The notes under the pieces are model-generated. The model was given only the letters and a program-made list of their open reading frames with translations, did not search any database and had not been told where the DNA came from. Shown in pieces: positions 1,376 to 64,000 of a stretch of DNA of 64,000 nucleotides (within the stretch, counting starts at the first letter, position 1; every line of letters begins with the position of its first letter). The translations under genes and the position numbers were made by a program. The stretch is from a virus, in IMG/VR virus record IMGVR_UViG_3300044712_001034, positions 30,080-94,079 of that record; one strand, given 5' to 3'.

Positions 1376-1399
1376 TAAAACTCCTTTTCTAAAGATTAG

Positions 1400-1472
1400 C
1401 GGAGGCGTACAGAATCGAACTGCAATTTCCTGATCCAGAGTCAAGCGTCTTTGTCCGTTAGACCACGCCCCT
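1400..1472 (-). tRNA. tRNA-Gln(CTG)
   Basis: Cloverleaf; CTTGA-CT CTG GA-TCAGG; T loop TTCGATT. Confidence 0.9.
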
Positions 1473-1476
1473 ATAG

Positions 1477-1547
1477 CAGTAAGGTAGAGACTTGAACTCT
1501 AATCAACCATTTTGGAGACGGTTATTCTACCATTGAACTACCTCACT
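1477..1547 (-). tRNA. tRNA-Trp(CCA)
   Basis: ACCGT-CT CCA AA-ATGGT; T loop TTCAAGT. Confidence 0.9.
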
Positions 1548-1552
1548 ATTTA

Positions 1553-1624
1553 TGGACACATAGGGAGTCGAACCCTAAACTTCTGATTGCAAAACAGATG
1601 TGTTCCCGCTAGCACCATGCGCCC
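1553..1624 (-). tRNA. tRNA-Ala(TGC)
   Basis: TCTGT-TT TGC AA-TCAGA; G3:U70 in acceptor stem. Confidence 0.9.
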
Positions 1625-1629
1625 TTATT

Positions 1630-1713
1630 GCATACCCGGCACAGCGGAGTGTTTACGTTGCTTCGGTTTCTTTTAATTACGTTTTCCGTCAACAACCGTC
1701 CTTGATAGTACGC
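1630..1713 (-). ncRNA. candidate structured RNA A in tRNA array
   Basis: Closing stem GCGTACT/GGTATGC, inner stems GTTGTT/AGCAAC and CGG/CCG; flanked directly by tRNAs. Confidence 0.45.
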
Positions 1714-1716
1714 CAG

Positions 1717-1788
1717 TGGAGAAAGAAAGAATTGCACTTTCATTACTCGCGTATCAGACGAGTTTCCTATCTGTTGAAAGATTTCTCC
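1717..1788 (-). tRNA. tRNA-Ile(GAT), atypical T loop
   Basis: CTCGT-CT GAT AC-GCGAG; acceptor GGAGAAA/TTTCTCC; T loop TGCAATT. Confidence 0.8.
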
Positions 1789-1791
1789 AAG

Positions 1792-1864
1792 TGATCCTAA
1801 GTAGATTCGAACTACCAACCTCCGGTATGTAACGCCGATGCTCTGACCGTTGAGCTATAGGATC
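1792..1864 (-). tRNA. tRNA-Val(TAC)
   Basis: TCGGC-GT TAC AT-ACCGG; T loop TTCGAAT. Confidence 0.85.
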
Positions 1865-1868
1865 TTAG

Positions 1869-1940
1869 TGTGATTGAATGATTTTGAAACATTGACCTTC
1901 TCATTTTCAGTGAGACGCTCTACCTCTGAGCTACAACCAC
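1869..1940 (-). tRNA. tRNA-Phe(GAA)
   Basis: TCTCA-CT GAA AA-TGAGA; D arm GCTC/GAGC. Confidence 0.85.
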
Positions 1941-1944
1941 TTAG

Positions 1945-2018
1945 CCGGGGAAGCAGGATTTGAACCTGTGATCACTCGCTCCCAAAGCGAGGGTGTTACC
2001 AAACTGCACTATTCCCCG
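1945..2018 (-). tRNA. tRNA-Pro(TGG)
   Basis: CTCGC-TT TGG GA-GCGAG; acceptor CGGGGAA/TTCCCCG. Confidence 0.9.
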
Positions 2019-2021
2019 TAA

Positions 2022-2138
2022 CCGTCTGTAATCAGGCCGCTCTATTACGTAATGTTCATCCAATACAGGACAGGTCAAATGCAATCTGCTGAACCTTACG
2101 TTACGTCTTAGTGTCGATAGCCCTCATTGTACAGACGG
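2022..2138 (-). ncRNA. candidate structured rod-like RNA B in tRNA array
   Basis: 9-bp closing stem CCGTCTGTA/TACAGACGG, central bubble, inner helix ACGTAA-G-GTTCA/TGAAC-A-TTACGT. Confidence 0.6.
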
Positions 2139-2141
2139 AGG

Positions 2142-2214
2142 CGATCTTAAGGGGACTCGAACCCCTAACCTATTCATCGACAGTGAATTGCTCTAGCCAT
2201 TGAGCTATAAGACC
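2142..2214 (-). tRNA. tRNA-Asp(GTC)
   Basis: ATTCA-CT GTC GA-TGAAT; G73. Confidence 0.9.
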
Positions 2215-2218
2215 AAGG

Positions 2219-2290
2219 CTCCCCGACCAGGAATCGAACCTAGACCTAGTGGTTAACAGCCACTCGTCCTGCCAATTAGACCATCGGAAA
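2219..2290 (-). tRNA. tRNA-Asn(GTT)
   Basis: AGTGG-CT GTT AA-CCACT. Confidence 0.9.
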
Positions 2291-2294
2291 ACAA

Positions 2295-2366
2295 GGTGAC
2301 AAATGAGATTTGAACTCATAACATTCTTATCCACAATAAGACGTTCTACCATTGAACTATTGCCAC
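2295..2366 (-). tRNA. tRNA-His(GTG)
   Basis: TCTTA-TT GTG GA-TAAGA; C73. Confidence 0.9.
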
Positions 2367-2368
2367 AG

Positions 2369-2435
2369 TTGCGGGGGTGGAAGTCGAATCCACGTTAATA
2401 GGTTATGAGCCTAGGGGTTTCCGAAACTCCCCGCA
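2369..2435 (-). tRNA. tRNA-Met(CAT), initiator-like, minimal D arm
   Basis: Acceptor TGCGGGG/CCCCGCA; TAGG-CT CAT AA-CCTA; D arm GTTT-CGG-AAAC. Confidence 0.75.
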
Positions 2436-2556
2436 GTATTTTAATGTAATTCATAATAAGTTAGTAAGATAATTCCAGCAATTAGTAATACTGCTATAAT
2501 AACGATTACTATTACTTTTAATAAACCTTTTAGAATATCCATATTATTCTCCTTAG

Positions 2557-2627
2557 TCCCCGATGATTGAATTGAACAATCTCTAGCGCCTTATAAGAGC
2601 GATTTGCTTCCGTTACAACAATCGGGG
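2557..2627 (-). tRNA. tRNA-Ile(TAT)
   Basis: Acceptor CCCCGAT/ATCGGGG, A73; TCGCT-CT TAT AA-GGCGC; T arm GATTG-TTCAATT-CAATC. Confidence 0.8.
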
Positions 2628-2632
2628 TTAGG

Positions 2633-2705
2633 TGCTCCTAGTGGAATTCGAATCCACATCTTAGGATTGAGAGTCCTAAATACTAGTCCGTTATACGATA
2701 GGAGC
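2633..2705 (-). tRNA. tRNA-Glu(CTC)
   Basis: TAGGA-CT CTC AA-TCCTA. Confidence 0.9.
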
Positions 2706-2720
2706 TTATTCAATTGTTAT

Positions 2721-2969
2721 TTACCCCCGTTTACAAAGTTCAAAATATTTATTCCAGAATAGAGTCCTTGTCTCTCTATCAAAAGGCTGAATAGCCCTAG
2801 TGAAAGCAAGTTTTCTACCTTCAGCTTTTACAAACTGATCCACCTTTGAACAAACTGACTGACCTAGCCACCCACCATTATCTGTATGAATGTAGCAATC
2901 TACAACCCTACGATGTTTACCATCTTCACTATACTTGAAACTTACTTCGTAATCATTTACCTTAAACAT
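2721..2969 (-). CDS. hypothetical phage protein
   Basis: Start reassigned to MFKVND (SD AGGAG); CSxxDQFxKxxGRKLAFxRA motif seen in small phage proteins. Confidence 0.65.
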   Translation of the reverse strand: MFKVNDYEVSFKYSEDGKHRRVVDCYIHTDNGGWLGQSVCSKVDQFVKAEGRKLAFTRAIQPFDRETRTLFWNKYFELCKRG

Positions 2970-3108
2970 TCTGCATCTCCTGTGATCTAGTTTCTCCGCA
3001 ATTTGCACACTTTTCTACTCGTAACCATCCTATTACTTTACCCTCATAATTCTGAACAGGCTCTACATGAGAGTAAACCCACAAATGAACACACTCTTTT
3101 TCATCCAT
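2962..3108 (-). CDS. small putative Zn-binding protein (48 aa)
   Basis: Manual translation MDEKECVHLW...EKCANCGE; SD AAGGAG. Confidence 0.6.
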   Translation of the reverse strand: MDEKECVHLWVYSHVEPVQNYEGKVIGWLRVEKCANCGETRSQEMQNV

Positions 3109-3136
3109 ACCAACTCCTTTATAGTTTAGAATAAGG

Positions 3137-3210
3137 CGCACCGGATAGGACTTGAACCTACAACCGTTAGCTTAGAAGGCTACTGCTCTGTCCTGTTGAG
3201 CTACTGGTGC
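3137..3210 (-). tRNA. tRNA-Arg(TCT)
   Basis: GTAGC-CT TCT AA-GCTAA; T loop TTCAAGT. Confidence 0.9.
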
Positions 3211-7823: not shown

Positions 7824-8185
7824 TACAAACTTGTTGACCTTTGGTTAGCAGAATTTGTTCTATAAAGATCTACCTGCATTTTCATAATATCAAATAGATT
7901 TTGTTGAAAAGCAATCTCAGCTTTTGCGTTTTCAAAGGCTTTCCTCAAAGGAACTAGCTCACCTTCCAAACCTGTGTATTCATAAGCTGATTTCACAAAA
8001 GTAGCTGATGGTGGATTACCTTTAGTAAAGTATTTCTGATCTGTAGATGTTATCTGATAGATTTCACTTTCTCGTTGTTTAATTTGAGAATCAAGTTCGT
8101 TGCGTACAATCATCTGATCCCTGATAGCATTAGCTACCTTTACCATATCTTCAAAATCCGGAATCACAATGCTAACTTCGCTCAT
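7823..8185 (-). CDS. helical protein, possibly UvsY-like recombination mediator
   Basis: 120-aa all-helical pattern in recombination module; inference only. Confidence 0.35.
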   Translation of the reverse strand: MSEVSIVIPDFEDMVKVANAIRDQMIVRNELDSQIKQRESEIYQITSTDQKYFTKGNPPSATFVKSAYEYTGLEGELVPLRKAFENAKAEIAFQQNLFDIMKMQVDLYRTNSANQRSTSL

Positions 8186-8600
8186 AATATTCTTCTATCC
8201 TTTCTTCTATTTTATCTAGTGCTTGGTTTAGGTTATACATAAGGTTATACACCTTTTCATCACTAACTTTATCTAACGTTTTTGCCATTGATACACAAGC
8301 GTATTTATTGTATCGGCTACGTTTATAAATATCTCTAAAGTTTACATCTAAGTCTACTACTAGTCCAGAGAATTGAAAGAACTCCATCAATGTACTTACT
8401 ATGTAATCTGTATCCAGTTCTAAAGCGTTTGCAATATAATCTATTGATCTACCTTGGCAACATAGATGTAGAATATCATAGGTCGCAATATAATCTAAAA
8501 CTATTGGATCAATATTTAATACGTGCTTATAGTACTGTTTTACTATCTCCCAATTACCCGTTTCGTTTTGACTCTTGTATTGCGATAAATAATTTATCAT
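8172..8600 (-). CDS. putative helix-turn-helix protein
   Basis: QGRSIDYIANALELDTDYIVSTL HTH-like segment. Confidence 0.5.
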   Translation of the reverse strand: MINYLSQYKSQNETGNWEIVKQYYKHVLNIDPIVLDYIATYDILHLCCQGRSIDYIANALELDTDYIVSTLMEFFQFSGLVVDLDVNFRDIYKRSRYNKYACVSMAKTLDKVSDEKVYNLMYNLNQALDKIEERIEEYYERS

Positions 8601-27689: not shown

Positions 27690-28336
27690 CAATAACACTC
27701 TGCATCCCCACGCTTTCTCGATACGATCTTTTGAAGAGATGCTTAGAGTCTGCTGAAGCCGGTATTATAAAACCAGACAGATATTTAGTAATAGACAATG
27801 GTGGAAGTTTAGATTTAAAATTACCAAAATTAGAAGTTGTAAAATTTGGTTATAACTTAGGTGTGGCTAAAAGCTGGAATTACTTTATTAATTATACGGA
27901 AGAAGTAAGAGTTATTTGTAATGATGATATTTTCTTTCATCCAGAAACACTAAGAAATCTTTTAGCAGAGTATGAAGGAAATCAAATAACTTGTACTAGG
28001 GATTTAGAAGCTAGCTCCTTTTCTTTATTTACTATTGGAGATGAGTTAGTAAATACTGTTGGATTATTTGATGAATCCATTTCTCCTGGTTATGCTTACT
28101 TTGAAGATAATGACTATGCTTATAGAATGGAGCTTCTAGGTTATCAAATCCACAGAGTACATAACTGCTCTTGTGGTCATTTTGGAAGCGCTACCCTAAA
28201 GAACTATTCTTCTAGAGAAATGGAAGATCATCATAATAAATTTAGAATTGCACAAAATAATTATCAAAAAAAGTGGGGTGGATTACCTGGAAAGGAAGAA
28301 TATAAAACACCTTACAACGGAGTAAATAATGAGTAA
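27686..28336 (+). CDS. GT2 glycosyltransferase
   Basis: IDNG, NLGVAKSWN, NDD, GLFDE, FEDNDY. Confidence 0.88.
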   Translation: MTITLCIPTLSRYDLLKRCLESAEAGIIKPDRYLVIDNGGSLDLKLPKLEVVKFGYNLGVAKSWNYFINYTEEVRVICNDDIFFHPETLRNLLAEYEGNQITCTRDLEASSFSLFTIGDELVNTVGLFDESISPGYAYFEDNDYAYRMELLGYQIHRVHNCSCGHFGSATLKNYSSREMEDHHNKFRIAQNNYQKKWGGLPGKEEYKTPYNGVNNE

Positions 28337-28613
28337 ACAATTAAGTGGACAGACTACAGTAACTACTGCTGGAACTGCTGTAGTTTTAGGTACTGGCGTT
28401 ATTAATGACGCACTAATCGTAAAAGCTTTTGCAACTAATAGTGGACTAATCTATGTTGGAAACGATGGAGTTAACGATGTAACTAGTACAAACGGATTCG
28501 TATTATCAGCAGGTAATGAAGTTAGATTTGAATTAGTTGGCAGACTCGAAGACATTTATGTTGATTCTTCAGTCAATGGACAAAAAGTAAGCTGGATAGT
28601 TCTTAACGTATAA
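28329..28613 (+). CDS. small beta-rich protein, possibly virion-associated
   Basis: 94 aa, Thr/Gly/Val rich, NSGLIYVG, GFVLSAG. Confidence 0.55.
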   Translation: MSKQLSGQTTVTTAGTAVVLGTGVINDALIVKAFATNSGLIYVGNDGVNDVTSTNGFVLSAGNEVRFELVGRLEDIYVDSSVNGQKVSWIVLNV

Positions 28614-28622
28614 AGGAGACTT

Positions 28623-29675
28623 ATGACTAAATATCTTGATACCTGGACCAGAGATGCTAAGGTTGGTAAGCTAAACCTAATTGATCGCTATAATCTATGG
28701 CGAATGAAAGAAGAGCCTACCCTAATTGGTACTCTTGATCCAACGACTTTAGCCAGACAAATTGATATTTCACATTGGCAAGGTGATGTTGATATTGCCA
28801 AGATGAAAGCAGAAGGAGACATTTCAATGGTGTTTCCAAAAGCTTCGGATGGCAAACAAGTACAAGCTGGTGATCCAACTTATGCTAATAACTATGTTGA
28901 TGATTGGCTTTATCGTAATGTGCAGAAATGCTACGATGCTAAAATAGCTTGTGGACCCTACCATTATGTACAACCATTTTTTCCAGATTACACTCTAGAA
29001 GGTATTGTAGCTTGGAACATGAAAACTCTTCACGCAGCTTTAGACCCACTAACTCCAAAGAAAAGCTATCATGCAATTGTTCTTGATGTTGAAGAAGCTA
29101 CTGGTACAGAACCAAATCGAAGTGATGTTGTACTAAAGATGATGGAAGCTATTGCGGCTGATCCAAAGATGTCGCAAGTTCCTGTAATTGTTTATTCCTC
29201 AATGAGTATGTACAACTCTTATTATCCAAAACTTAGGGACCAGTTGTCTTTCCCCGGAGCTAATAAAAACTTATGGATGGCTCAATGGGTTTACAATACT
29301 GTAACTAATACAACTTGGGCTAATGTTGTTTCTACTATTATGCCTTCTATTAGTATGAAAGTTCTTACTCCCGGTTTTGCAACTTGGAAGTTTCTACAAT
29401 GGAGTTCTTCACTAATTCTTCCCGGTGGAAGTGGGAGAACTGATGTTAATTTCTACAATGGAACTAAAGCAGCCTTATATTCTTGGCTAGGATTTGATCC
29501 CGGTACTGTAGTTCCACCTCCCCCACCCCCACCAGCTACAGATCTAACAGCTAGAGTAGTAGCACTAGAAACTAAAGTAGCGGAACAGGAAACAAAACTC
29601 ACCGCACTAACAACTAAGGTAGACGCAGGACATACACACTCTGTTACTATCCCAGTTGTAACTACATCTAAGTAA
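28623..29675 (+). CDS. GH25 muramidase (endolysin)
   Basis: IDISHWQG, KASDG, YHY, LDVE, LWMAQW, QWS, DVN; Pro linker plus coiled-coil tail. Confidence 0.9.
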   Translation: MTKYLDTWTRDAKVGKLNLIDRYNLWRMKEEPTLIGTLDPTTLARQIDISHWQGDVDIAKMKAEGDISMVFPKASDGKQVQAGDPTYANNYVDDWLYRNVQKCYDAKIACGPYHYVQPFFPDYTLEGIVAWNMKTLHAALDPLTPKKSYHAIVLDVEEATGTEPNRSDVVLKMMEAIAADPKMSQVPVIVYSSMSMYNSYYPKLRDQLSFPGANKNLWMAQWVYNTVTNTTWANVVSTIMPSISMKVLTPGFATWKFLQWSSSLILPGGSGRTDVNFYNGTKAALYSWLGFDPGTVVPPPPPPPATDLTARVVALETKVAEQETKLTALTTKVDAGHTHSVTIPVVTTSK

Positions 29676-29715: not shown

Positions 29716-31272
29716 ATGGCAATCATAGAAAAAATATATGGACCAGAGGATTTAGCATTATACGAAATACTAAGAAATCCCTGTCTTTGCACAGAGTTTA
29801 TAGAAAACTTTGATAAACAAAAATACGAAGAAGAGTTCGAACTTACTTGGTATCAGAAAGAATTGATGGGAGATTTTAATTCTTATGTGTCAGTTGTAGC
29901 TGGTCGTAGTGCTGGTAAAACTGTATCTTTAGTTTCTATAATTCGCTGGATTTTAGTATATAATGTTTTCCCCTCCGATTATATTATTTATTTAGTACCA
30001 TCTAAAGTACATCTTGAACCTGTGTGGTCCGGATTAATAAGAACATTTAGATCTAATACTTTTCTAAAACATTTTATACAACCTAATGCAGGTATCAATA
30101 GTAGTGATTTTAAGATTACATTATTGAACCAAGCAGTATTAATGTGCCGTATCGCAGGTCAAACTGGTACTGGTGTTTCTGTTATTGGTTTGCACACACC
30201 ATTCTTTATTGTTGATGAAAGCGGTTATCAACCTTGGGGATCTTGGATAGAACTACAACCTACAGTAAATACATTTACTTCCGGGTTTAGACTTATGGTT
30301 TCTGGCGTTCCAGATGGTAGACGAGAGAACTCAGTTTGTTATCATTGTGATAGAGAGAACTCTAACTATTCTAAACATAGAATTAGTTCTGATATGAACC
30401 CCAGGTTAGCAGAAGCAGATAAGCAGAGAGCTATAGAACAGTATGGGGGAGAAGATAGTGATGACTTTACCCACTTGTGGAAAGCTCAACATGGTAAGCC
30501 TGTATTTGCTTTGTTTGATAGAACTTCGTTTAGTATTGGATCGGACCCAGTTTATAAACTAATTCTAAATGGTTTACAACTAGAAGACAATCTAAATGAA
30601 ATTGTTTCTAGAATTACAGTCTTCCCGCCAATCCCAAATAAGAGTGATAAAGTAATACTTGGAGTGGACTTAGGTTATACAGAACCAACAGCTATTATAA
30701 TTCTATATTTAGAAAATTCTGGAAGGCTTAGATTTCACGGAAGAATTAGATTAGATAAAGTTTCTTATCCAGTTCAGAAAAGCTTCATAGATGCTTTGGA
30801 TACCAAATACAATCCTATTATTATTGGAGTTGATGCTGGTGGAGTAGGCAAACCAGTAGTTATGGACCTTTTGGAGCATCAAGACTTCATGCACAAAAAC
30901 TATTCAAAAAGAGTAGTTCCAATAGATTTCTCTACTTCACTTGTTATAGGTATAGATGGTAATGGCGAAGAAATTAAATCTAAGACAAAACCATTTGCTA
31001 CTTCAGTTTTACAGGATTATGCTAATAATCATAAGCTAGTATTCTCCCATACAGACTTAGAATTAGTTACAGAACTAGAAAGAATGACTTATACTAAAAC
31101 TCCTACGGGAGATATTGTGTATAGAACTGTTACTAATAAGGGTGGAAAAAGAGGTGAAGACCACTTTACTTCTGCTTTACTTTGTGCTGTATTAGCTTAT
31201 TATTTGAAAAATGATTTTATGACTTATAAATCTCAAAAGAAAACGCTGGCTAGTCCAGGTTGGTTTGGATAA
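29716..31272 (+). CDS. terL: terminase large subunit
   Basis: Walker A GRSAGKT, Walker B FIVDE, nuclease GVDLG, DH. Confidence 0.9.
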   Translation: MAIIEKIYGPEDLALYEILRNPCLCTEFIENFDKQKYEEEFELTWYQKELMGDFNSYVSVVAGRSAGKTVSLVSIIRWILVYNVFPSDYIIYLVPSKVHLEPVWSGLIRTFRSNTFLKHFIQPNAGINSSDFKITLLNQAVLMCRIAGQTGTGVSVIGLHTPFFIVDESGYQPWGSWIELQPTVNTFTSGFRLMVSGVPDGRRENSVCYHCDRENSNYSKHRISSDMNPRLAEADKQRAIEQYGGEDSDDFTHLWKAQHGKPVFALFDRTSFSIGSDPVYKLILNGLQLEDNLNEIVSRITVFPPIPNKSDKVILGVDLGYTEPTAIIILYLENSGRLRFHGRIRLDKVSYPVQKSFIDALDTKYNPIIIGVDAGGVGKPVVMDLLEHQDFMHKNYSKRVVPIDFSTSLVIGIDGNGEEIKSKTKPFATSVLQDYANNHKLVFSHTDLELVTELERMTYTKTPTGDIVYRTVTNKGGKRGEDHFTSALLCAVLAYYLKNDFMTYKSQKKTLASPGWFG

Positions 31273-43187: not shown

Positions 43188-43459
43188 TATCAATGTGGGA
43201 AATGGCAAAGGCGTTGCGAGAACCTCTTGACACTAATATCAAACAGTTGCCAGATATTCCCTACACAATTTCCTTTGTAATAAGAAAAAGATCCCAAGTA
43301 GATAATTTTAATGAGCTTCCTAAAGAAAAGCGTCCACCAGATAAAATGATTTGGGATAGTCCACCGGAAGATATTGAAAGCTGGTTGGATAGAATATTCA
43401 AAGGAAAAGAACAGTTAAACTCAGAGATTGTATTCTCCGACTCAGAGATAGAAGGATGA
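43160..43459 (+). CDS. tail assembly chaperone gpT-like part, reached by -1 frameshift
   Basis: -1 frame IARSNAVVS runs into the 43193..43459 ORF. Confidence 0.8.
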   Translation, partial: KKIARSNAVVSMWEMAKALREPLDTNIKQLPDIPYTISFVIRKRSQVDNFNELPKEKRPPDKMIWDSPPEDIESWLDRIFKGKEQLNSEIVFSDSEIEG

Positions 43460-46400
43460 ACAATAACGAACAATTAATCGAACAAATTAAAATAATTATT
43501 GAGGGATTGACTAAAGAGCAAGCTAAGCTAAATCAAAGCTCTGATGCCTATAAAGACATTAGTAATGCTGTGCTTGCTTTTAGCAATTCTTTAACGATAC
43601 TCAATGGTCAGATAGCTTTATCTGATAAGCAGTTATCTAACTTTGCTTCTAAAATGCAAGCCGTTCTATCCGGGCAAAAGACAAGATTTACAGCCCTTGG
43701 GGTCGAGGCAAGAACAAGTAAATTAGCCCCAATTATAAAGGGGTCTGCTTTAGAGTATGCTTCTAGACTTACTGCGAAGGATTTACAATTACAAACTGCT
43801 ACAGTAAAGTCTTCTCCAACTCAGGATGACAAGCTAGCCGAAAAAGCGGAGAAATCTGCCGCTAGATTAGACATAGCTACAAATAGAATGCAGACAGCGT
43901 TGAACAAATTCAATACTGTCCAAAAAAGATATTTAGAAGCTTTAGATAAACTAAAAGGATTAGAAGGTAGAGCAGGTGTATTAGGAACACCTGAACAAAA
44001 ATCTCCCGATGTTATCAAGGGGATTACCTTTGATATTGATAGTGTAAAAGATAATCCAACTAAACTAACAGTATTAACTTCTGAAATTAGAAAAGAAACT
44101 GCTAGTTTAAATGATGCTACTCTTGAAGCAGAAAGAGCTATTAGAGATTTTGAAAAGCGTATCTCTAATGCCGATAAAAGCAGACCTAAGATAGATTCTG
44201 CTGAAAAAGCTAATGCAGATACAATTAGTAAAATATCTGCTCTTAAAAAGGAGATGGAGGATTTAGGAGATGCCAGGTCTGCTCAATGGATGGAGCAGAA
44301 TATGGGAAACAGACCAGTAAGAACTCCCGGAATGGGAGATTCTGATTGGCTAAGGTTAATTCAAGAAGACACTAAAAGGTTAGAAGCTTTCTATCAAGCT
44401 CAACTAAAGATAGTAGAAGAATATAAAGCTAAGATAAAAGCTGCTGCAAGTCAAGCTAGTCAAGGAGCTACAGGTACTTTTAGTGGAACTGGAACTACCG
44501 TTAAAGAGGGAGATGTTCCACAAGGTAAAACAACAGTAGATAAGAAAGCAGAAAAATTAAAGAAAGCTACAGAATCTTTAAACGAAGCGATTGATAAAAA
44601 CTTAGAAGTACAGAAAAAGTACCAAAAAGTTATTCAAATGCTTTATGATTTGGATATGAAATATGGGCCAAGATCAGAGGGAAAGCCTTCACCCTATCCT
44701 GCTCCAACTCCTATAGAAACGCCGGAAATGCTAAAAGCTGGCGTAAACTTTAGCGACGCAGAAAGCATTAAACAAAGAGCCGAGCAAGTAAAAAAAGGTG
44801 GTGCAGCTTATAAAACTGCTACTAATGATGCTATTAGAAACATTAGAGAGTTTCAGCAAAAACTACAAGAACTTGATAAACTCAAGGCTATGCAGAACAT
44901 CGGGAGTTACATTCCCGGAGGTGCTGGCGCTGCAAGAATATTAGATGAAAAAGCTGCCAAACTAGATCCTAACTTTACAAGAGATAAGATCAAGAGTGTT
45001 AGCACAGAACCATCTTCTAATATTACAAAAGTTAGATATGAGTATCAAGCCGCTGAAGGCGTAATAAAATCTACTACCTTTACAGTAGATAAGTTTGGTA
45101 GAGTTCTTGTAGATACTCAAAGAAGATTTAGAGGGTTCTTTGAGAATGTTGGTAGAGATATATTAGAAGCTCTAAAGTGGTCTATTGCTATCGCCGCTGT
45201 TTATGGCCCTCTAAACGCACTAAATCAATTAGTAGACATAGCGATAAAGAACCAATCAGCATTAGCAGACGTAGCTATCGCATTAGGTAATGCTACGCAA
45301 TCAACGGGAGAAATCTTCCAAGCTACTGCTGATATTGCTGCTCAAACTGGTGAGGAACTATCTGGCGTTGTTGAAGCATACAACCTAGCTTATAAGGCTA
45401 CTGGTAGTATGGAAGATGCAACTACTAGATTTGCTGTAGCAAACAAGCTACTAACTGATGCAATTGTATTATCTAAGTTATCCACTCTAGACCAAGCAGA
45501 ATCAATTGATGTACTTACTGCTGCTCTCAGACAAACAAATACGCCATTAGATCAAGGAACTACTTTACTTGATAAGTGGGTAGCTGTTACTAAGGTAGCT
45601 GGTGTTGATCTTACTACACTAGCTTTAGGCTTCTCCGTCTTAGGTGAGGCCGCTGATGCAGTTGGTTTATCAATGGAAGAACTTAATGCAGTAATCGCTA
45701 TTATTGCAGAAGGTTCAGCACAGTCGGGTAAAGAAATTGCAAATAGAGCTAGAGCTTTAGTGGCGGGTTTCCAATCAGACGGTGCAAGACAAGAAATGGC
45801 TAAGCTAGGTATTTCCTTTATTGATGGTGAAGGAAAAGCTAGAAGTTTCTTAGATATTATGAAAGAGATTTCAGCCCTAAGCAAGACAGGGGTTATTAAT
45901 CCAGATCAGCTTAGTAAGCTAACTTTAGCTATTGGTGGTGGATCTAGAGGATCAGCTACAGCCATTAGCTTTATTGAGAACTTAGGTAAAATAGACAAGC
46001 TCGTAGCTGCTCAAAATAACTCACAAGGAGCTGCTGCTCAGGCTTTAGGAAAGAAACTAAATACAGTAGAAACTGCTACAACTCGTTTAGGTAATGCTTT
46101 TCAAGAGCTAGCCCAAGCTTTAGGAGATAAAGGTGGGATTCTTGATGCCTTTAAAGTTGGTGTTGATTTAGTAACATTACTTACTAAATCTATTGCAGAC
46201 TTAGCAGATGTAGCAGGTAGAGCAGGTCCAGCATTAATAGGAACATTAGGTGCTGCTACTCTATTCTCTAGGCGACCGGATTTATTAAATGGTGGGGCGG
46301 GTTATCAGGTAGGCCAGATGGGAGGCATAAACGCTTCCGTAAACGCTTTCGGACAACGCACCGGAGCTTCTTTATATAACACATTTAATAAAAACAAGGC

Positions 46401-48780
46401 TAATCCTGCTGGAACACTTGCCGCTATGGAATTTGGTGGCAAGTTTGCACAAAACGCTGCCGCAGGTGGTTTAGCCATTCTTGGTTCGGCCGCTCCAAAC
46501 TTCCTTGCTGGAAGAAATAGTCAGGGCATTGGTAACATTGTCGGCGGGATTATGGGTGGTTTACTTGGTTCCGCTGGTGGTCCAATGGGTACTGCAATTG
46601 GAGCATCTATCGGCTCAGCTATCCTAGAGGGTATGGTAAACTCTGCTGAAGATTATAAGATTAGATTATCAGATGCTTTAGCTCCTAGCCCAATTCCAGA
46701 ACCTCCAAAACCAGGTAAAGATAACGCTCCTGATGTAACAAAAGATGAAAAATTAAAAGCTCTTCTAGAAGATTTAGTAGGGTCTAAAACTGGACTAAAA
46801 GGTTTAGACGAATTCTTCAACTCACAGAATAAAAACTTTGAAAACTTTATCGGCAAACTAAAATACGGTAGTGGTTTTGCTCCTTCGGGCTTTTCTGATA
46901 CACAGGCTCTATTAGAGCAAGTCAAGCGTATAGAAGAGGCTGGTGGAAGATTTCAAGGCCAGAGGTTTGTACCTCTAACAGAAGAAGAAAAGAAAAAGCT
47001 AGAAGAACTTAGAAAGATGTTAGCTGCGGAAACAAAGCTAATAGAAGATAGAAATAAGAAATATACTAAGACAACTCCTATTGAAGATCAGCAAATTAGC
47101 GATGCTATTGATGCTAGATCAAAAGAATTAGAATCTAAATTTGGTAAAGGTCTAATAGGGGCTGCTGCTTATAATAGAGGTAAAGAAGCTTTAGGTGGAT
47201 TTAGTGCTACTGCTCCACAATTTATGAATGTTTTAAGTGGCGTAGAAGGTTTTGATAAACAAACTTTCTTAAAGCAGTATAGCAATATTACTGCACAAGG
47301 TAACACAGCAGATTTAGAAAACCTAAATCAAATGAAGCAGATTATTATTGATGCTAATACTGCTATGGATTCTGGATCATTATCTACAGAAGATTATGCA
47401 GAAAAGCAAAAGTTAGCTACACAAACTTCGCTTGATTTATACGAAGCTGTAACAAAACTCTATAATCAATATGCTGCACAAGCTACTTTACTTCCAACAT
47501 TAGAATTCCCAACAGCTAAGCTAACCTCTGGAACAACTGAGGAAGACTTTAAAAAGATAGCCGTAGGATTTTCAGACCAGGCACTAAAAGATCAAGTAGA
47601 TGCGAAAGCTATTACAGATGAAACTGCACAAGCAATCAAAGATAGTTATCAAGATGTTATTGTAACTATTGGAGATACTGTATACACTTTTGAAGGTACT
47701 ACTACAGATGCAATTAATAAGGCCTTCGAAAGGCTGGTCGCAGAAGGAAAAGCTTTACAAGAGTCTGCTAAAGGCATAGATTTTCAAACTTTTGATATGT
47801 CGCAAGAACAACTACTATCTGTTGCTAATGGTCCACAATATGATGCCCTTCTAAAGAAGTTACAATCATTTGGATACCAACCTCAACTAGAAGATAACAT
47901 TGCTATCACTACAAAAGATCAAAAGATAACGCCCCTTTACCAAAAGGATTTTAAAGTACTACAGTATCTATTACAACAGATTCTAAAGACTGAAGAAAAG
48001 CAGTTAGATGGTATGTTCAACTTACCTGAAGGATCTTCGTTTTGGGTTCCTGCTCAAGCAGCACAAATGTCTAGAGACACAGCTAATGCACAAGGAGCTT
48101 TAGATGCTACACAGTTTAATGGTGGAGTTAGTAACTTCGACCAAGCTGTTGTAAAGTTTGGTAATTGGGTAGAGCAAATGAAAGGATTTAGACAAGGCGA
48201 ACAACAAAGCTTTTGGCCTACTAAATTTGAGGATCAAATGAAGTTATTTAGACAAGGAGAGCAACAGTCTAACATTAATTTACCAAAGACTCTCGCTCAA
48301 ATAGGTAAATTAAATCTACCTATTTACGGTCCTTTTGAAAATAAACTAAATAAAGAACCAGTACCGTTTGGTGGGCAAATTCCTCAACAGTATTTAGCTG
48401 CTTATAACGCACAATACGCTGCAAAGCCTACTACTCAGTCACAGCAACCTACAGGACTAGAGGCACTAACTCAAAGCATCCTAACGTTTTTTAAGAGTTT
48501 AGGATTGTCTTCTATGACTCCAAAACCAACAGGTTTAGGTGTTACAGATGTTCCAACATTACCTAGCGCCCAACCTTCACAAACAAATCTACAAGATATT
48601 GGAGCAATAATAGCTAATGGTGTTTCTAATCTAACTACTAGACTAAATCTAACCATAGATAGCAGAACAGTAGTACAAGTAGATGGTAGACAATTAGCCG
48701 CTGTTGTAAAACAATATCTAAAGAGCGATCTATTAAACTTTGCTGGTGGAACTGGAAATAGATCAGTTTCAGTAATCTAG
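43456..48780 (+). CDS. tail tape measure protein
   Basis: 1774 aa, Ala/Gly-rich helical, TP901-like core, C-terminal VDGRQLA. Confidence 0.92.
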   Translation: MNNNEQLIEQIKIIIEGLTKEQAKLNQSSDAYKDISNAVLAFSNSLTILNGQIALSDKQLSNFASKMQAVLSGQKTRFTALGVEARTSKLAPIIKGSALEYASRLTAKDLQLQTATVKSSPTQDDKLAEKAEKSAARLDIATNRMQTALNKFNTVQKRYLEALDKLKGLEGRAGVLGTPEQKSPDVIKGITFDIDSVKDNPTKLTVLTSEIRKETASLNDATLEAERAIRDFEKRISNADKSRPKIDSAEKANADTISKISALKKEMEDLGDARSAQWMEQNMGNRPVRTPGMGDSDWLRLIQEDTKRLEAFYQAQLKIVEEYKAKIKAAASQASQGATGTFSGTGTTVKEGDVPQGKTTVDKKAEKLKKATESLNEAIDKNLEVQKKYQKVIQMLYDLDMKYGPRSEGKPSPYPAPTPIETPEMLKAGVNFSDAESIKQRAEQVKKGGAAYKTATNDAIRNIREFQQKLQELDKLKAMQNIGSYIPGGAGAARILDEKAAKLDPNFTRDKIKSVSTEPSSNITKVRYEYQAAEGVIKSTTFTVDKFGRVLVDTQRRFRGFFENVGRDILEALKWSIAIAAVYGPLNALNQLVDIAIKNQSALADVAIALGNATQSTGEIFQATADIAAQTGEELSGVVEAYNLAYKATGSMEDATTRFAVANKLLTDAIVLSKLSTLDQAESIDVLTAALRQTNTPLDQGTTLLDKWVAVTKVAGVDLTTLALGFSVLGEAADAVGLSMEELNAVIAIIAEGSAQSGKEIANRARALVAGFQSDGARQEMAKLGISFIDGEGKARSFLDIMKEISALSKTGVINPDQLSKLTLAIGGGSRGSATAISFIENLGKIDKLVAAQNNSQGAAAQALGKKLNTVETATTRLGNAFQELAQALGDKGGILDAFKVGVDLVTLLTKSIADLADVAGRAGPALIGTLGAATLFSRRPDLLNGGAGYQVGQMGGINASVNAFGQRTGASLYNTFNKNKANPAGTLAAMEFGGKFAQNAAAGGLAILGSAAPNFLAGRNSQGIGNIVGGIMGGLLGSAGGPMGTAIGASIGSAILEGMVNSAEDYKIRLSDALAPSPIPEPPKPGKDNAPDVTKDEKLKALLEDLVGSKTGLKGLDEFFNSQNKNFENFIGKLKYGSGFAPSGFSDTQALLEQVKRIEEAGGRFQGQRFVPLTEEEKKKLEELRKMLAAETKLIEDRNKKYTKTTPIEDQQISDAIDARSKELESKFGKGLIGAAAYNRGKEALGGFSATAPQFMNVLSGVEGFDKQTFLKQYSNITAQGNTADLENLNQMKQIIIDANTAMDSGSLSTEDYAEKQKLATQTSLDLYEAVTKLYNQYAAQATLLPTLEFPTAKLTSGTTEEDFKKIAVGFSDQALKDQVDAKAITDETAQAIKDSYQDVIVTIGDTVYTFEGTTTDAINKAFERLVAEGKALQESAKGIDFQTFDMSQEQLLSVANGPQYDALLKKLQSFGYQPQLEDNIAITTKDQKITPLYQKDFKVLQYLLQQILKTEEKQLDGMFNLPEGSSFWVPAQAAQMSRDTANAQGALDATQFNGGVSNFDQAVVKFGNWVEQMKGFRQGEQQSFWPTKFEDQMKLFRQGEQQSNINLPKTLAQIGKLNLPIYGPFENKLNKEPVPFGGQIPQQYLAAYNAQYAAKPTTQSQQPTGLEALTQSILTFFKSLGLSSMTPKPTGLGVTDVPTLPSAQPSQTNLQDIGAIIANGVSNLTTRLNLTIDSRTVVQVDGRQLAAVVKQYLKSDLLNFAGGTGNRSVSVI

Positions 48781-60068: not shown

Positions 60069-60230
60069 ATGGCTACTAATATTAGAGTCTCTGCTGAAAA
60101 GCTAATAGTAGAGTATGTAGCTACTTACAATGATAGGTTTGTTTCTGCGGTTAAACTGATGGTGGAATACAATGACGTAGTTCCACCAATAACGGTAGAA
60201 TATGGACCACCTTTACAGGTTATGAACTAA
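60069..60230 (+). CDS. small protein with VEY repeats (53 aa)
   Basis: Manual translation MATNIRVSAEKLIVEY...VSAVKLMVEY...ITVEY. Confidence 0.6.
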   Translation: MATNIRVSAEKLIVEYVATYNDRFVSAVKLMVEYNDVVPPITVEYGPPLQVMN

Positions 60231-60493
60231 TGAAGCCCATAACATTTTACTTTTTAGTAGCCCAACTTCTAGATTTATGCACGACAGGAGTTGGGCTACT
60301 CCTAGGGCTTTGGGAAACAAATCCAGTAGGAATAAACCTCAATACTATTATAAGCAAGCTGTTAGTTATTTTACTAGGCGTAATAATATTCTCTAGATTA
60401 AAAATGCCCAAGCTAGCCTGGATAATAGTAATAATATCAGCCATTCCCGTATTATGGAATTTATTAGTAATTACTTGTGAATTACTAGTCTAA
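60230..60493 (+). CDS. DUF5658-like membrane protein
   Basis: LLDLCTT..GL..G.WETNP; three hydrophobic segments. Confidence 0.6.
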   Translation: MKPITFYFLVAQLLDLCTTGVGLLLGLWETNPVGINLNTIISKLLVILLGVIIFSRLKMPKLAWIIVIISAIPVLWNLLVITCELLV

Positions 60494-60501
60494 GGAGAAC
60501 T

Positions 60502-61236
60502 ATGGCAACAAAAATATCATTAGCAACAAATACAAAACCAGACGGTAGCGAGGGACAAGCGTTATTAGTTTACAATGGTGCTCCTGCTTGGAGTTCTTCT
60601 CTAATTACCGGATGGACTACACTCGCTGGAACATACGCTTATGTTAGTGCAAGTACATTTACTATAGTAGGTGATTACACTACTGTATTTACTACTGGTG
60701 TTAAACTAATGCTCAATAATACAACTACTAAGTACTTCTATGTACTTAGTTCTACTTATTCTGCACCTAACACTACAGTAACCGTAACTGGGGGTAGTGA
60801 TTATTCTCTCGCTAATCTAGCGGTTACAGCAGTAAATATAAGTCATCTAACTGCCCCCTCTGGTTTTCCAGATTGGTTCAACTATGCTCCCGCTTTAGCT
60901 GGCTGGTCTTCTGCCCCTGCTACTGCGGTATACAAGTTTAGAATAGATGGTAGAAAGGTAATGGTAGTTGTAAAACAAGCTGGTGCAGCTACTAGCGATC
61001 AGTTGTATCTAATTATTCCCGCCCCAGTAACAGCAGCTACAGTTACTAGCGCTACTTGGGGAGCTTGTTGTTGGGCTGCTACAGATAGTGGAACAGCAGT
61101 AACAGCACCAGCTAGGGCATACATAGGATCAGCAGGTACAAATATAACCTGCACAAAAGATCTTACCGGAGTAACAAATAGCTGGACAGCTTCGGGAACA
61201 AAATTAGTAAACTTCCAATTAGAGTATGAAATATAA
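60502..61236 (+). CDS. tail fibre-related protein
   Basis: YVSASTFT..GD.T..F..G, PSGFPDWF, C-terminal YEI. Confidence 0.65.
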   Translation: MATKISLATNTKPDGSEGQALLVYNGAPAWSSSLITGWTTLAGTYAYVSASTFTIVGDYTTVFTTGVKLMLNNTTTKYFYVLSSTYSAPNTTVTVTGGSDYSLANLAVTAVNISHLTAPSGFPDWFNYAPALAGWSSAPATAVYKFRIDGRKVMVVVKQAGAATSDQLYLIIPAPVTAATVTSATWGACCWAATDSGTAVTAPARAYIGSAGTNITCTKDLTGVTNSWTASGTKLVNFQLEYEI

Positions 61237-61829
61237 TGAAACTAACCGGATTGGAAGTACCTATATTAATCTTCGCAGTATTCTCTTTTATCCTGCTTAC
61301 TTATAAGAGTATAAAGAAAAGAGACATTAGTATTTTTGGTGCAGCTATACCAAGATTGTTTGTCGCCCTTATGATGGGACTAGAAATATATTCCGGATTA
61401 ACACAACCTTTCTTAGTAAGAACTGCACTAATCCTATTACTTCTAAGTGATACTATAACTGGTATGTTACATTATATAGTAGAGAAGCAGATGAACAAAA
61501 CCTACGGAACTGTTATTAGTTCGCTAAGACAAAAACTAAGTGCAGCTTTAGATGGTTCTTTCTCACCTTTCTTCACTATAGATACTACTGGGAGAATAGA
61601 ATACTTGAATGACAGTCTTGCTAATTTAGTAGGACTAGATAAAGAGTATCTAATCGGAAACAATCTTCTAAAGCTATTAGAAATAACTAATACAGTAGAA
61701 GAACTAAAAAAGAATGGAATAGTAGAGTGTAACATCAAAACAAAAGATGGTTATAGAAAAGCTAAGATTATCGGCAAGGAGACACAGAACGGACACATAA
61801 CTATAACTGGTAGTATCTACTTTCTATAG
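61236..61829 (+). CDS. membrane protein with C-terminal PAS domain
   Basis: Three hydrophobic helices then FFTIDTTGRIEYLNDSLANLVGLDKEYLIGNN PAS signature. Confidence 0.75.
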   Translation: MKLTGLEVPILIFAVFSFILLTYKSIKKRDISIFGAAIPRLFVALMMGLEIYSGLTQPFLVRTALILLLLSDTITGMLHYIVEKQMNKTYGTVISSLRQKLSAALDGSFSPFFTIDTTGRIEYLNDSLANLVGLDKEYLIGNNLLKLLEITNTVEELKKNGIVECNIKTKDGYRKAKIIGKETQNGHITITGSIYFL

Positions 61830-61841
61830 TAGGGGGAATAC

Positions 61842-62288
61842 ATGAATTTACAAGACATTGAGCCTAGCATAATAATAGCACTATTCTCCCTGTTAGGTAC
61901 TATAGTTATGGCTTTACTACAACTACGAAAAGACAAGGCAGAAATAAAACGCGCTGCTCAACAACTAGAAATAGAAAATAGTAAAGCAGGAATAGATGCC
62001 GTAGAAAGTATCGCAGATATAGTATTGAAAATGCACAAGCAAGAAATAGATACTTTGAGAGCAATCGCAGAAGATCTAAAATCTAGAAATAAGTATCTAG
62101 AGGAAGAACTAACTAATTGCCAAGTGCAACTAAAAGAAAGAAATAAGATGATAGATGAAATAGAACAAGACTTGCGATCTTGCGCCAAAGATAAATCTAT
62201 AGCATACAATAAGATAGAAGAGTTAATGAGAATCGTTAATTGTGAAATAGATGTAAATGGTAACATAATACCAAAAGAAGGAGGATAA
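61842..62288 (+). CDS. N-terminal TM plus coiled-coil protein (holin/antiholin-like)
   Basis: One TM helix followed by long heptad repeats. Confidence 0.55.
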   Translation: MNLQDIEPSIIIALFSLLGTIVMALLQLRKDKAEIKRAAQQLEIENSKAGIDAVESIADIVLKMHKQEIDTLRAIAEDLKSRNKYLEEELTNCQVQLKERNKMIDEIEQDLRSCAKDKSIAYNKIEELMRIVNCEIDVNGNIIPKEGG

Positions 62289-62292
62289 CAAT

Positions 62293-62796
62293 ATGCCATA
62301 TAACATGGATAAAGATTTAGGGGGAGATAGTAAAGAGAATGATACCTGGATGGAGTTGTCAAGGGGTTATAAAACATTAATAGATCCGGAATACTATGAG
62401 CAATTATCTAAATACAAATGGCATGTGCAATCATGTAAAAGTCAATTATATGCCGCTACAATTATTAATAGAAAAACAGTTTATTTACATAGACTATTAT
62501 TTAATAATCCCACAGAGCATATAGTAGATCATATAAACCACGACACTTTAGATAACAGAAAACACAATCTTAGGTTAGTTAGCAAACAACAAAATTCTTT
62601 TAATTCCAGACCTAAAAACAAGTTATATCCTAAAGGAGTTTGTTTTGATAAACAAACTGGTAAATATATAGCGCAAATAATGATAAACAGTAAAAACTAT
62701 AAATTGGGTCGCTACACTACACCAGAAGAAGCGGCTAATGTTTATGGTGCAAAAGCCCAAGAATTATTTGGTAATTATAATTATAAAGGAGATTAG
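62293..62796 (+). CDS. HNH-AP2 homing endonuclease
   Basis: YLHR, VDHINHDTLDNRKHNLR, KGV..YIAQI..LG.Y..PEEAA. Confidence 0.92.
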   Translation: MPYNMDKDLGGDSKENDTWMELSRGYKTLIDPEYYEQLSKYKWHVQSCKSQLYAATIINRKTVYLHRLLFNNPTEHIVDHINHDTLDNRKHNLRLVSKQQNSFNSRPKNKLYPKGVCFDKQTGKYIAQIMINSKNYKLGRYTTPEEAANVYGAKAQELFGNYNYKGD

Positions 62797-62798
62797 AT

Positions 62799-63029
62799 AT
62801 GCCATACAATATTGAAGGTGGTGATACACCGGAAAGCACACAATTTATGGAAGATTGTATCCAGAAAGTAATGAAAAAAGGCGCAGATAAAAGCAAAGCA
62901 GTAGCAATCTGTAAAGTAAGCTTTAGAAATATGAAGCGCAATGAAAAGAACATGAAAAAGAATCATGAGTCAAATCATAAAGAAGATCCTAAACATGAAA
63001 AGGGTAAGGAGGATAAAGAAAATGCCTAA
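62799..63029 (+). CDS. small basic protein (C..KAVAICK motif)
   Basis: 76 aa, SD AAGGAG; N-terminus duplicated on upstream HNH gene. Confidence 0.7.
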   Translation: MPYNIEGGDTPESTQFMEDCIQKVMKKGADKSKAVAICKVSFRNMKRNEKNMKKNHESNHKEDPKHEKGKEDKENA

Positions 63030-63079: not shown

Positions 63080-63112
63080 TAGCCAGTATATAACAATACT
63101 GGCTAATTTTTT
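63080..63112 (+). terminator. terminator ending late region
   Basis: TAGCCAGTAT/ATACTGGCTA stem plus TTTTTT. Confidence 0.8.
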
Positions 63113-63787: not shown

Positions 63788-63820
63788 AGAAAATGGGAGA
63801 ATATTTCTATTCTCCCATTT
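63788..63820 (-). terminator. terminator
   Basis: AAATGGGAGAATA/TATTCTCCCATTT stem with T-tract on minus strand. Confidence 0.65.
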
Positions 63821-63827
63821 TAGGTTA

Positions 63828-64000
63828 TTACTCTAAGGAGAGTAGATCAATACTCTCCTCTTTTTCAACGGTATTGTTAGACCTATCTCCATTATTGGAT
63901 TTTCGGCCACGTTCTGGTTTAAGAACCCATGACAATGGAGATCCCTCAAAACTTGCAAGCATAGAAATAAAGTCAAACTGCACTACCTTTATTGAAATGT
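63828..64000 (-). CDS. 3' end of a CDS entering from beyond the window
   Basis: Open frame ...SWVLKPERGRK...IDLLSLE stop. Confidence 0.5.
   Translation of the reverse strand, partial: ISIKVVQFDFISMLASFEGSPLSWVLKPERGRKSNNGDRSNNTVEKEESIDLLSLE

Follow-up and report, generated by a model that had tools for sequence, protein, structure and literature searches.

A PAS-domain membrane protein and its obligate single-helix partner: a candidate lysis-timing module of an uncultured phage lineage

The duration of a phage infection cycle is determined by holins, of which those of class I, such as S105 of phage lambda, possess three transmembrane domains (TMDs) in an N-out/C-in orientation. Beyond the T4-type inhibition of lysis almost nothing is, to our knowledge, known about an input of the host cell to the lysis clock, while the PAS domain is the commonest bacterial fold for signal input and protein contacts. 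Among the described lysis systems, holin T of phage T4 carries a folded soluble domain which serves as a handle for the antiholin RI (PMC11413866), RI and RIII being the antiholins of this phage (PMC11413866, PMC8385771). In mycobacteriophages of cluster F1 the two proteins of the LysF1a/LysF1b pair (gp34/gp35 of Girr and gp32/gp33 of NormanBulbieJr) are both needed for normal lysis timing (PMC13056207). The LysF1b class, described in mycobacteriophages in 2026, comprises proteins of 92 to 150 amino acids (aa) that have one TMD at their N-terminus, in N-out/C-in orientation, basic residues after this domain, and a cytoplasmic, extended and helical tail of which 30-50% is charged; the gene adjoins one for a multi-TMD holin-like protein (PMC13056207). 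LysF1b-like proteins are needed for efficient lysis that can be triggered by poisons, and the class is devoid of any conserved motif or sequence signature (PMC13056207). Here we analyse two adjacent genes (positions 61236-62288) within a 64,000-nucleotide stretch of viral DNA, in the following referred to as the window, which corresponds to bases 30080-94079 of the IMG/VR record IMGVR_UViG_3300044712_001034. The first gene encodes a membrane protein composed of three transmembrane (TM) helices and a PAS domain (3TM+PAS protein), the second a partner consisting of one TM segment and a long charged helix.

We favour the reading that in an uncultured phage lineage this pair acts as a lysis-timing module of holin type made up of two proteins, a proposal which in our estimation stands about evenly between right and wrong. 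The features of the locus itself, in which ORF denotes an open reading frame and AF2 AlphaFold2, are the following:

61236-61829, + strand: gene of the 3TM+PAS protein, an ORF of 197 aa with a Pfam PAS match above cut-off
61254-61394, + strand: TM1 (residues 7-28) and TM2 (residues 31-53), from AF2 helices and hydropathy
61407-61556, + strand: TM3 and linker helix (residues 58-107), a single unbroken helix in the AF2 model
61563-61826, + strand: PAS fold (residues ~110-197) with five strands and a short Falpha
61830-61841, + strand: spacer of 12 nt with a second in-frame TAG and a GGGGGA Shine-Dalgarno sequence 5 nt before the ATG
61842-62288, + strand: partner gene, an ORF of 148 aa, analysed by AF2 and for charge and heptads

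The start of the first gene overlaps the stop codon of the preceding fibre-like gene (TAATG), and inspection of its sequence revealed no dual start. While hydropathy places hydrophobic segments at residues 3-21, 31-49 and 60-78 of the encoded protein, the AF2 model calculated from a 48-sequence alignment (mean predicted local distance difference test, pLDDT, of 94) contains helices at residues 7-28, 31-53 and 58-107, the first two of which are joined by the basic and predictedly cytoplasmic loop KSIKKRD. The third helix extends in the model over 50 residues, with TM3 running about 27 residues past the membrane into the PAS domain. The latter consists of strands 112-116, 120-124, 162-169, 172-184 and 188-196, which form a five-stranded antiparallel sheet, and of helices between them. 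In sequence searches PF00989 matches with 28.8 bits (cut-off 22.6) and TIGR00229 with 24.2 bits (cut-off 22.9), while relatives of the protein reach 30-48 bits over the whole PAS profile and the family profile retrieves the PAS domains of ARNT, BMAL1, HIF and phytochrome from the PDB chains at E ~5e-11. The top Foldseek matches are all PAS domains (probability 1.0, TM-score 0.72-0.79 normalised by target), the best ones from the PDB being a Haloarcula HTR-like protein, a Desulfitobacterium protein, PpsR and FixL; look-alikes in the ESM Atlas are generic PAS proteins and unnamed viral proteins only. This PAS domain is the only one in the genome. No output domain was found, the protein stopping three residues past its last PAS strand.

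The partner contains a TM segment at residues 10-28, and AF2 predicts a single helix from residue 8 to residue 132 (pLDDT 87.5). Of the residues beyond the TM segment 39% are charged, and the heptad phase stays constant between about residues 57 and 133. Shortly past the TM helix (here residues ~61-73) most partner relatives share the motif A-L-x-L-N-K-Q-E-x-x-T-L-R, which the divergent partners of the loci L017, L019 and L025 fit loosely. PHROGs, Pfam, NCBIfam and PADLOC yielded no informative family for this protein, merely low-complexity coiled-coil matches. An earlier note on this DNA, made from its letters alone, had thus read the architecture of both genes largely correctly: the three TM helices, the PAS signature, the lack of a kinase or other output domain, the single-TM coiled-coil gene and the gap of exactly 12 nt (from the end at 61829 to the start at 61842) all hold, and structure prediction of the single proteins confirms the PAS fold. 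What it had described as a short helix, however, is according to AF2 the 50-residue continuation of TM3.

Two consecutive in-frame TAG codons (61827-61832) end the PAS gene, and the partner gene lies in the same frame. Both the double TAG and the shared frame are probably incidental, the gene pairs of relatives not being in frame. A fusion of both genes by TAG read-through was considered and rejected, since no suppressor tRNA is found among the 14 tRNAs of the phage and the frames differ in the L002 relative.

The distribution of basic residues suggests the same orientation for both proteins. Averaged over 48 family members, the number of Lys plus Arg residues in the 3TM+PAS protein amounts to 0.08 in the N-terminus, 3.1 in loop 1, 0.5 in loop 2 and 4.1 after TM3, because of which the positive-inside rule predicts an N-out/C-in topology with a cytoplasmic PAS domain. 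The N-terminus of the partner is acidic, with no Lys or Arg before the TM segment in 11 of 14 members (0-1 in 13 of them) and 3-5 such residues after it in all 14; in the partner from the window the respective numbers are 0 and 5. Because basic residues follow the TM segment throughout, the long helix is predicted to be cytoplasmic (C-in) in each of the 14 members.

An exhaustive phmmer search against 1.8 billion cluster representatives yielded 370 matches to the 3TM+PAS protein, while a word-indexed search retrieved the query alone. Among these matches are about 50 full-length relatives of 183-231 aa which align end to end with 24-45% identity. Invariant in the family alignment are N125, N185, H187 and G192; R40 in TM2 (91%), K100 (93%), G119, E122, T183, G186, T189 and I190 are near-invariant, and D72 in TM3 is conserved at 89%. 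The family ends in the C-terminal signature T-x-N-G-H-x-T-I-T-G-S-I. Scans with back-translated patterns led to three viral contigs, 17 metagenome contigs and one contig of a metagenome-assembled genome (MAG). In all 21 loci a 1TM-helix gene is next downstream, separated by 0-20 nt and encoding a tail protein of 85-148 aa; three of these partner genes were masked by antisense ORFs and were confirmed by direct translation. Since the partner gene is kept at every locus, the pairing is a property of the family rather than of one phage.

Beyond these loci the family is hardly represented. Neither protein is encoded in 50,697 GenBank phage genomes, in which the DNA of the region, the L002 relative and the partner likewise found no match. 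The PHROGs and NCBIfam libraries searched do not contain the family, Pfam matches it via generic PAS models only, and PADLOC gave no match for the PAS protein. Two pattern scans of the GTDB genomes returned one match, the phage-like contig L025 (LNGC01000144.1, 3984 bp) in a Candidatus Methanofastidiosum MAG, in which a tail-collar fibre gene, the 3TM-PAS gene, the 1TM gene and a GH25 muramidase gene follow each other in the same order as in L017 and L019. We rejected this archaeon as a host, the contig being short and a GH25 muramidase having no substrate in an archaeal wall; L025 is almost certainly a mis-binned fragment of a bacterial phage.

The best phmmer matches outside the family are multi-PAS sensor proteins. 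Moreover, the TM2-TM3 and PAS parts of the L002 and L003 relatives align weakly with MASE3_PAS_HK and a MASE1-type diguanylate cyclase (E 2e-9 to 2e-8), although the NCBIfam scores (33-37 bits against a cut-off of 560, and 42.7 against 1135) derive mostly from the PAS part and Pfam recognises no MASE domain in the 3TM+PAS protein or its relatives. Because of these two kinds of matches we suppose that the module was probably captured from a host membrane sensor whose output was lost.

The genomic surroundings of the pair were compared after collapsing near-duplicate contigs and retaining only lineages with enough flanking sequence (n=12). In about nine of these 12 lineages a peptidoglycan hydrolase, GH25 or M23, is located directly beside the pair. 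The individual loci show the following neighbours:

L002: GH25, upstream of the pair
L004: GH25-like, a weak match (24.8 bits, below the cut-off of 27), upstream
L003, L017, L019, L022 and L025: GH25, downstream
L008: GH25, downstream, with one small ORF in between
L007 and L013-15: M23 peptidase (plus SH3_3 in L013-15), upstream
L012: truncated ORF with an SH3_3 end, directly upstream

Neither a signal nor a TM segment is found at the start of these lysins, and no other membrane-protein ORF of at least 35 aa is contained in the cassettes of the relatives. From genomic data a holin-type function is usually recognised by adjacency to holin-dependent lysins with no other membrane gene present. 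In relatives the genes follow each other as tail fibre, 3TM-PAS, 1TM-helix and lysin, which is the classical holin-holin-lysin order, and the combination of one membrane pair with two unrelated enzyme classes has the appearance of a modular lysis cassette. As to the proteins themselves, at least one TMD is expected of a holin, and the first protein has three TM helices and the partner one. A short charged cytoplasmic tail is found in the partner, while the PAS protein carries a folded domain instead. Neither of the two matches any Pfam, PHROGs or NCBIfam holin profile. Likewise, no holin family is matched by any of nine small membrane ORFs which were scanned in the 94-kb genome, nor by one from L006.

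In the phage under study the pair is situated at the far end of a long + strand block (~17.0 to 63.0 kb) in which sugar-synthesis genes, a gene for a 94-aa protein, GH25, the large terminase, head genes, the tape measure and large fibre-like proteins, one of them collagen-like with 1260 aa, succeed one another. The fibre-like genes run from the tape measure up to 61236 so that the pair indeed follows the tail genes, as the earlier note had stated. The relevant features are:

28623-29675, + strand: GH25 muramidase (PF01183, 56.5 bits)
29716-31272, + strand: large terminase
43456-48780, + strand: tape-measure protein (PhageMin_Tail)
60230-60493, + strand: ORF of 87 aa with three hydrophobic segments, wedged among fibre genes
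63080-63105, + strand: intrinsic-terminator-like hairpin, a 10-bp stem followed by a T-run, which closes the long + strand late operon

Late expression of the pair is plausible because of the coupling to the fibre gene, the strong ribosome-binding site of the second gene and the terminator at 63080-63105. The GH25 muramidase, the sole recognised peptidoglycan hydrolase of this phage and likewise devoid of a signal or TM segment, is encoded 32 kb upstream of the pair, directly 5' of the large terminase gene. The lysis position which the earlier note had assigned to the pair is therefore borne out by the relatives, where GH25 or M23 stands beside it, but not by the window phage. A beta-rich protein of 94 aa is encoded just 5' of the GH25 gene (28329-28613), and its homologue in L021 (793-1074, E 2e-31) directly follows the pair. 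Because of this arrangement in L021 we suggest that an ancestor probably had the pair and the lysin region side by side and that the early and replication regions now separate them in this phage.

If the pair serves lysis, both proteins would be late products, encoded by the conserved genes that come last in the structural operon, and would insert into the cytoplasmic membrane in N-out/C-in orientation. The first would adopt an S105-like three-TM topology in which the rigid helix of TM3 carries the PAS domain on the cytoplasmic side. Together they would control, and probably themselves form, the membrane lesion through which the signal-less cytoplasmic lysin gains access to the wall. Several observations weigh against a holin-type function. 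A folded cytoplasmic domain of 90 aa is atypical of holins, which usually end in a short charged tail. The 3TM module shows no kinship with any holin family, and a stand-alone homologue without PAS was not found in our search, the sole match still carrying a PAS domain. In view of the MASE-PAS alignments of L002 and L003, the protein could be a piece of a captured sensor whose role is not lytic. Neither the window phage nor L006, its nearest relative (38% identity), has a lysin next to the pair. Finally, the window phage contains with the 87-aa ORF at 60230-60493 a second unassigned three-TM protein; it matches no family, has a counterpart in none of the related loci, and is a possible alternative or additional holin candidate or else a moron.

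What the PAS domain might contribute can be judged from its pattern of conservation. Column entropy is lowest in the Hbeta-Ibeta loop and Ibeta (1.16 bits), followed by Abeta-Bbeta (1.75 bits), and highest in Ealpha-Falpha (2.87 bits) and Gbeta (2.81 bits). Within residues 143-171, the Ealpha-Falpha-Gbeta pocket region, no position is conserved at 70% or above. The distance from the G-K-N turn to the Gbeta-Hbeta turn measures 39 residues in 26 of 48 members and 19-38 residues in the other 22; it amounts to 29 in the window protein, which belongs to those members whose pocket segment is 7-20 residues shorter, and in one member the segment is down to 19 residues, too few for an Falpha. Neither a conserved Falpha His as in heme-binding PAS domains nor a LOV-type Cys motif was found in the family alignment, and the invariant His lies in a surface hairpin loop outside the pocket. 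Ligand-binding PAS families conserve just the segment which varies and shrinks here. Because this segment is variable and shortened and no cofactor motif is conserved, the PAS domain is most likely a dimerisation or partner-docking module and less likely a cofactor-bearing sensor. The conserved Hbeta-Ibeta hairpin and the Abeta-Bbeta strands look like a protein-contact surface, and R40 and D72 together with the near-invariant hairpin suggest contacts under selection. Helices and coiled coils are well known to dock onto the beta-sheets of PAS domains and onto the edges of these sheets. In the module proposed here the PAS domain would either dimerise the 3TM protein or offer the edge of its beta-sheet to the conserved post-TM helix of the partner; in either case it would constrain TM3 via the rigid connector and keep the membrane helices inactive until triggering. 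As a speculation, R40 and D72 may constitute a buried pair of charges, the stability of which would depend on how far the membrane is energised.

The earlier note had gone further and proposed a sensor-gated holin/antiholin pair, i.e. a PAS domain which senses a small molecule, redox state or energy and gates the hole, timing lysis to the state of the cell. We regard this as unlikely. It is in line with it that the PAS fold is genuine and predicted to be cytoplasmic, that a rigid helix links it to TM3 as in sensor kinases, that N125, N185 and H187 are invariant, that the nearest structural neighbours include the heme-PAS domains of FixL and DosP, and that about 55% of the members keep a full-length Ealpha-Falpha segment; in addition, holin triggering responds to membrane energisation (PMC13056207). 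Yet the pocket segment is the least conserved part of the domain (2.8-2.9 bits vs 1.16 bits for the H-I loop and Ibeta), it is shortened in 22 of 48 members to the point of losing Falpha in one of them, and the sequence points to no cofactor. A sensing role appears more plausible for those members which retain the full-length pocket. Doubtful, too, is a mechanism in which the 3TM protein is the holin (or antiholin) and its hole-forming helices are mechanically coupled by the rigid helix to a PAS domain reading an intracellular signal such as redox state, energy charge, a metabolite or some product of the phage, with the 1TM partner relaying or locking the state. Of the original proposal, a holin-type role of the pair is supported by the obligate pairing at 21 of 21 loci and by the lysins beside it in relatives, whereas its gating by a sensor is not.

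A role outside lysis is improbable as well, though some findings speak for it. The pair could represent a captured N-terminal fragment of a host sensor, acting as a decoy which heterodimerises with a host kinase or cyclase, or a superinfection-exclusion or membrane-remodelling pair. The MASE alignments of L002 and L003, the multi-PAS sensors as best matches outside the family and the remote lysin of the window phage and L006 would fit such a role, and moron-type membrane genes are frequent at the junction of tail and lysis genes. However, the NCBIfam scores far below cut-off, the lack of a Pfam MASE domain and of a PADLOC match for the PAS protein, and the fact that the family was found in no cultured phage, with one phage-like 4-kb contig as the only match from a prokaryote genome, argue against it, and neither the strict LysF1b-like pairing nor the repeated adjacency to different lysin classes would be expected of a decoy. 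That the partner is an Rz-type i-spanin of a diderm host and the PAS protein the holin can be largely dismissed, since the N-terminal TM segment, coiled-coil-like helix, Rz-like size and lysis cassette of the relatives are outweighed by the predicted cytoplasmic location of the helix in 14 of 14 members, by the lack of any lipobox ORF (o-spanin) embedded in, overlapping or within 600 nt after the partner gene at 15 loci scanned, by several partner relatives of just 85-104 aa, and by the modular design of the neighbouring lysins with SH3_3 wall-binding domains, which typifies phages that infect monoderm hosts.

Downstream of the pair two further genes follow, the first of which does not belong to the module:

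62293-62796, + strand: HNH-AP2 homing endonuclease gene (Pfam HNH_3 and AP2, phrog_99)
62799-63029, + strand: gene of a conserved soluble protein of 76 aa (phmmer against the ORFs of the loci, alignment)

The counterpart of the 76-aa gene is located directly 3' of the pair in L004 and L006, while in the window the HNH-AP2 gene sits in between. The N-terminus of the HNH-AP2 ORF, about 21 residues (M-P-Y-N-M-D-K-D-L-G-G-D-S-K-E-N-D-T-W-M-E), copies that of the small protein of L004 and L006, which looks like the insertion of a homing endonuclease with duplication of the 5' end of its target gene. In the GH25 muramidase seven prolines in a row precede a short, coiled-coil-like tail at the C-terminus (window 29400-29675), and no SH3 or other known wall-binding domain was found in it.

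The record as a whole comprises 94,079 bp and is rated 100% complete by CheckV. Its first 189 bases (1-189) recur at 93891-94079 (window 63811-64000), because of which the assembly closes into a circle or is terminally redundant, although IMG/VR classes the record as linear. The region is present in two rhizosphere metagenome DNA runs, which may be the source samples, and in no listed RNA run; the GC content is 30-41%. A cluster of 14 tRNA genes, among them two for tRNA-Ile (gat, tat) and one for tRNA-Arg (tct), occupies window positions 1399-3210 on the - strand. The large terminase reaches a best identity of just 23%, with a mangrove-soil phage and a Moorella phage, a similarity that points to no host. 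Outside the window, at record positions 7919-8305, a lipoprotein with the lipobox L-S-G-C is encoded which matches Pfam Phage_VG64 (178 bits) and phrog_478, whose PHROGs label "recombination directionality factor" we consider doubtful for a lipoprotein.

If the proposed function is true, a PAS-bearing membrane protein of the lysis cassette together with its obligate LysF1b-like partner would represent a new mode of lysis regulation, and the pair is probably an undescribed form of the machinery which times the bursting of the host. Should the sensing reading prove true, a lineage of uncultured soil and sediment phages would possess a lysis clock with a built-in sensor. The two-gene system is compact, rendering the coupling of a domain to the membrane part of a holin amenable to simple expression experiments, and a profile for the family would allow the annotation of lysis cassettes in a set of uncultured phages.

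Compared with the known systems, the pair most closely resembles LysF1, in that two adjacent, coupled membrane-protein genes are found in a lysis cassette. The partner from the window agrees with every published descriptor of LysF1b (148 aa, TM segment 10-28, 39% charged). In contrast, LysF1a contains two TMDs and short tails while the first protein here is a 3TM N-out/C-in protein with a PAS domain, and the partner family features a conserved motif, which the LysF1b class does not. Sequence similarity between the pair and the LysF1 proteins was not detected, and the relation of the partner to LysF1b is one of architectural likeness, by analogy, not of homology. Gp4/Gp5 of phage Ms6 form a further comparable pair. 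Our literature search retrieved no paper joining a PAS domain to a phage lysis membrane protein; the statement of the earlier note that no equivalent has been described accordingly holds for the PAS protein but not for the partner, which has an analogue in LysF1b (PMC13056207).

With Rz-type i-spanins the partner shares an N-terminal TM segment and a coiled-coil-like helix within a lysis cassette, but its predicted topology is the opposite one and no o-spanin was found at the loci scanned. The MASE3_PAS histidine kinases and MASE1 diguanylate cyclases resemble the first protein in that a continuous helix leads from the TM helices to a PAS domain in the cytoplasm; the family described here, however, lacks a kinase, GGDEF or other output domain, has just three TM helices, is restricted to phages and is tied to lysins. 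Lambda S105 corresponds to it in the number of TM helices, in predicted topology and in the presumed late expression, and the N-terminus of the family is very short and nearly without basic residues. S105 differs by its 105 aa, its short charged C-terminal tail and its dual-start antiholin, in place of which the present system has a PAS domain of 90 aa and a separate partner gene. Holin T of T4, finally, is likewise a lysis membrane protein of about 200 aa with a folded soluble domain which is regulated by a second small phage protein. It possesses one TMD and a periplasmic non-PAS domain, and RI is periplasmic, whereas both soluble parts of the present pair are predicted to be cytoplasmic; there is no homology. 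As a holin endowed with a regulatory domain, T is by analogy the nearest precedent in principle for the PAS protein.

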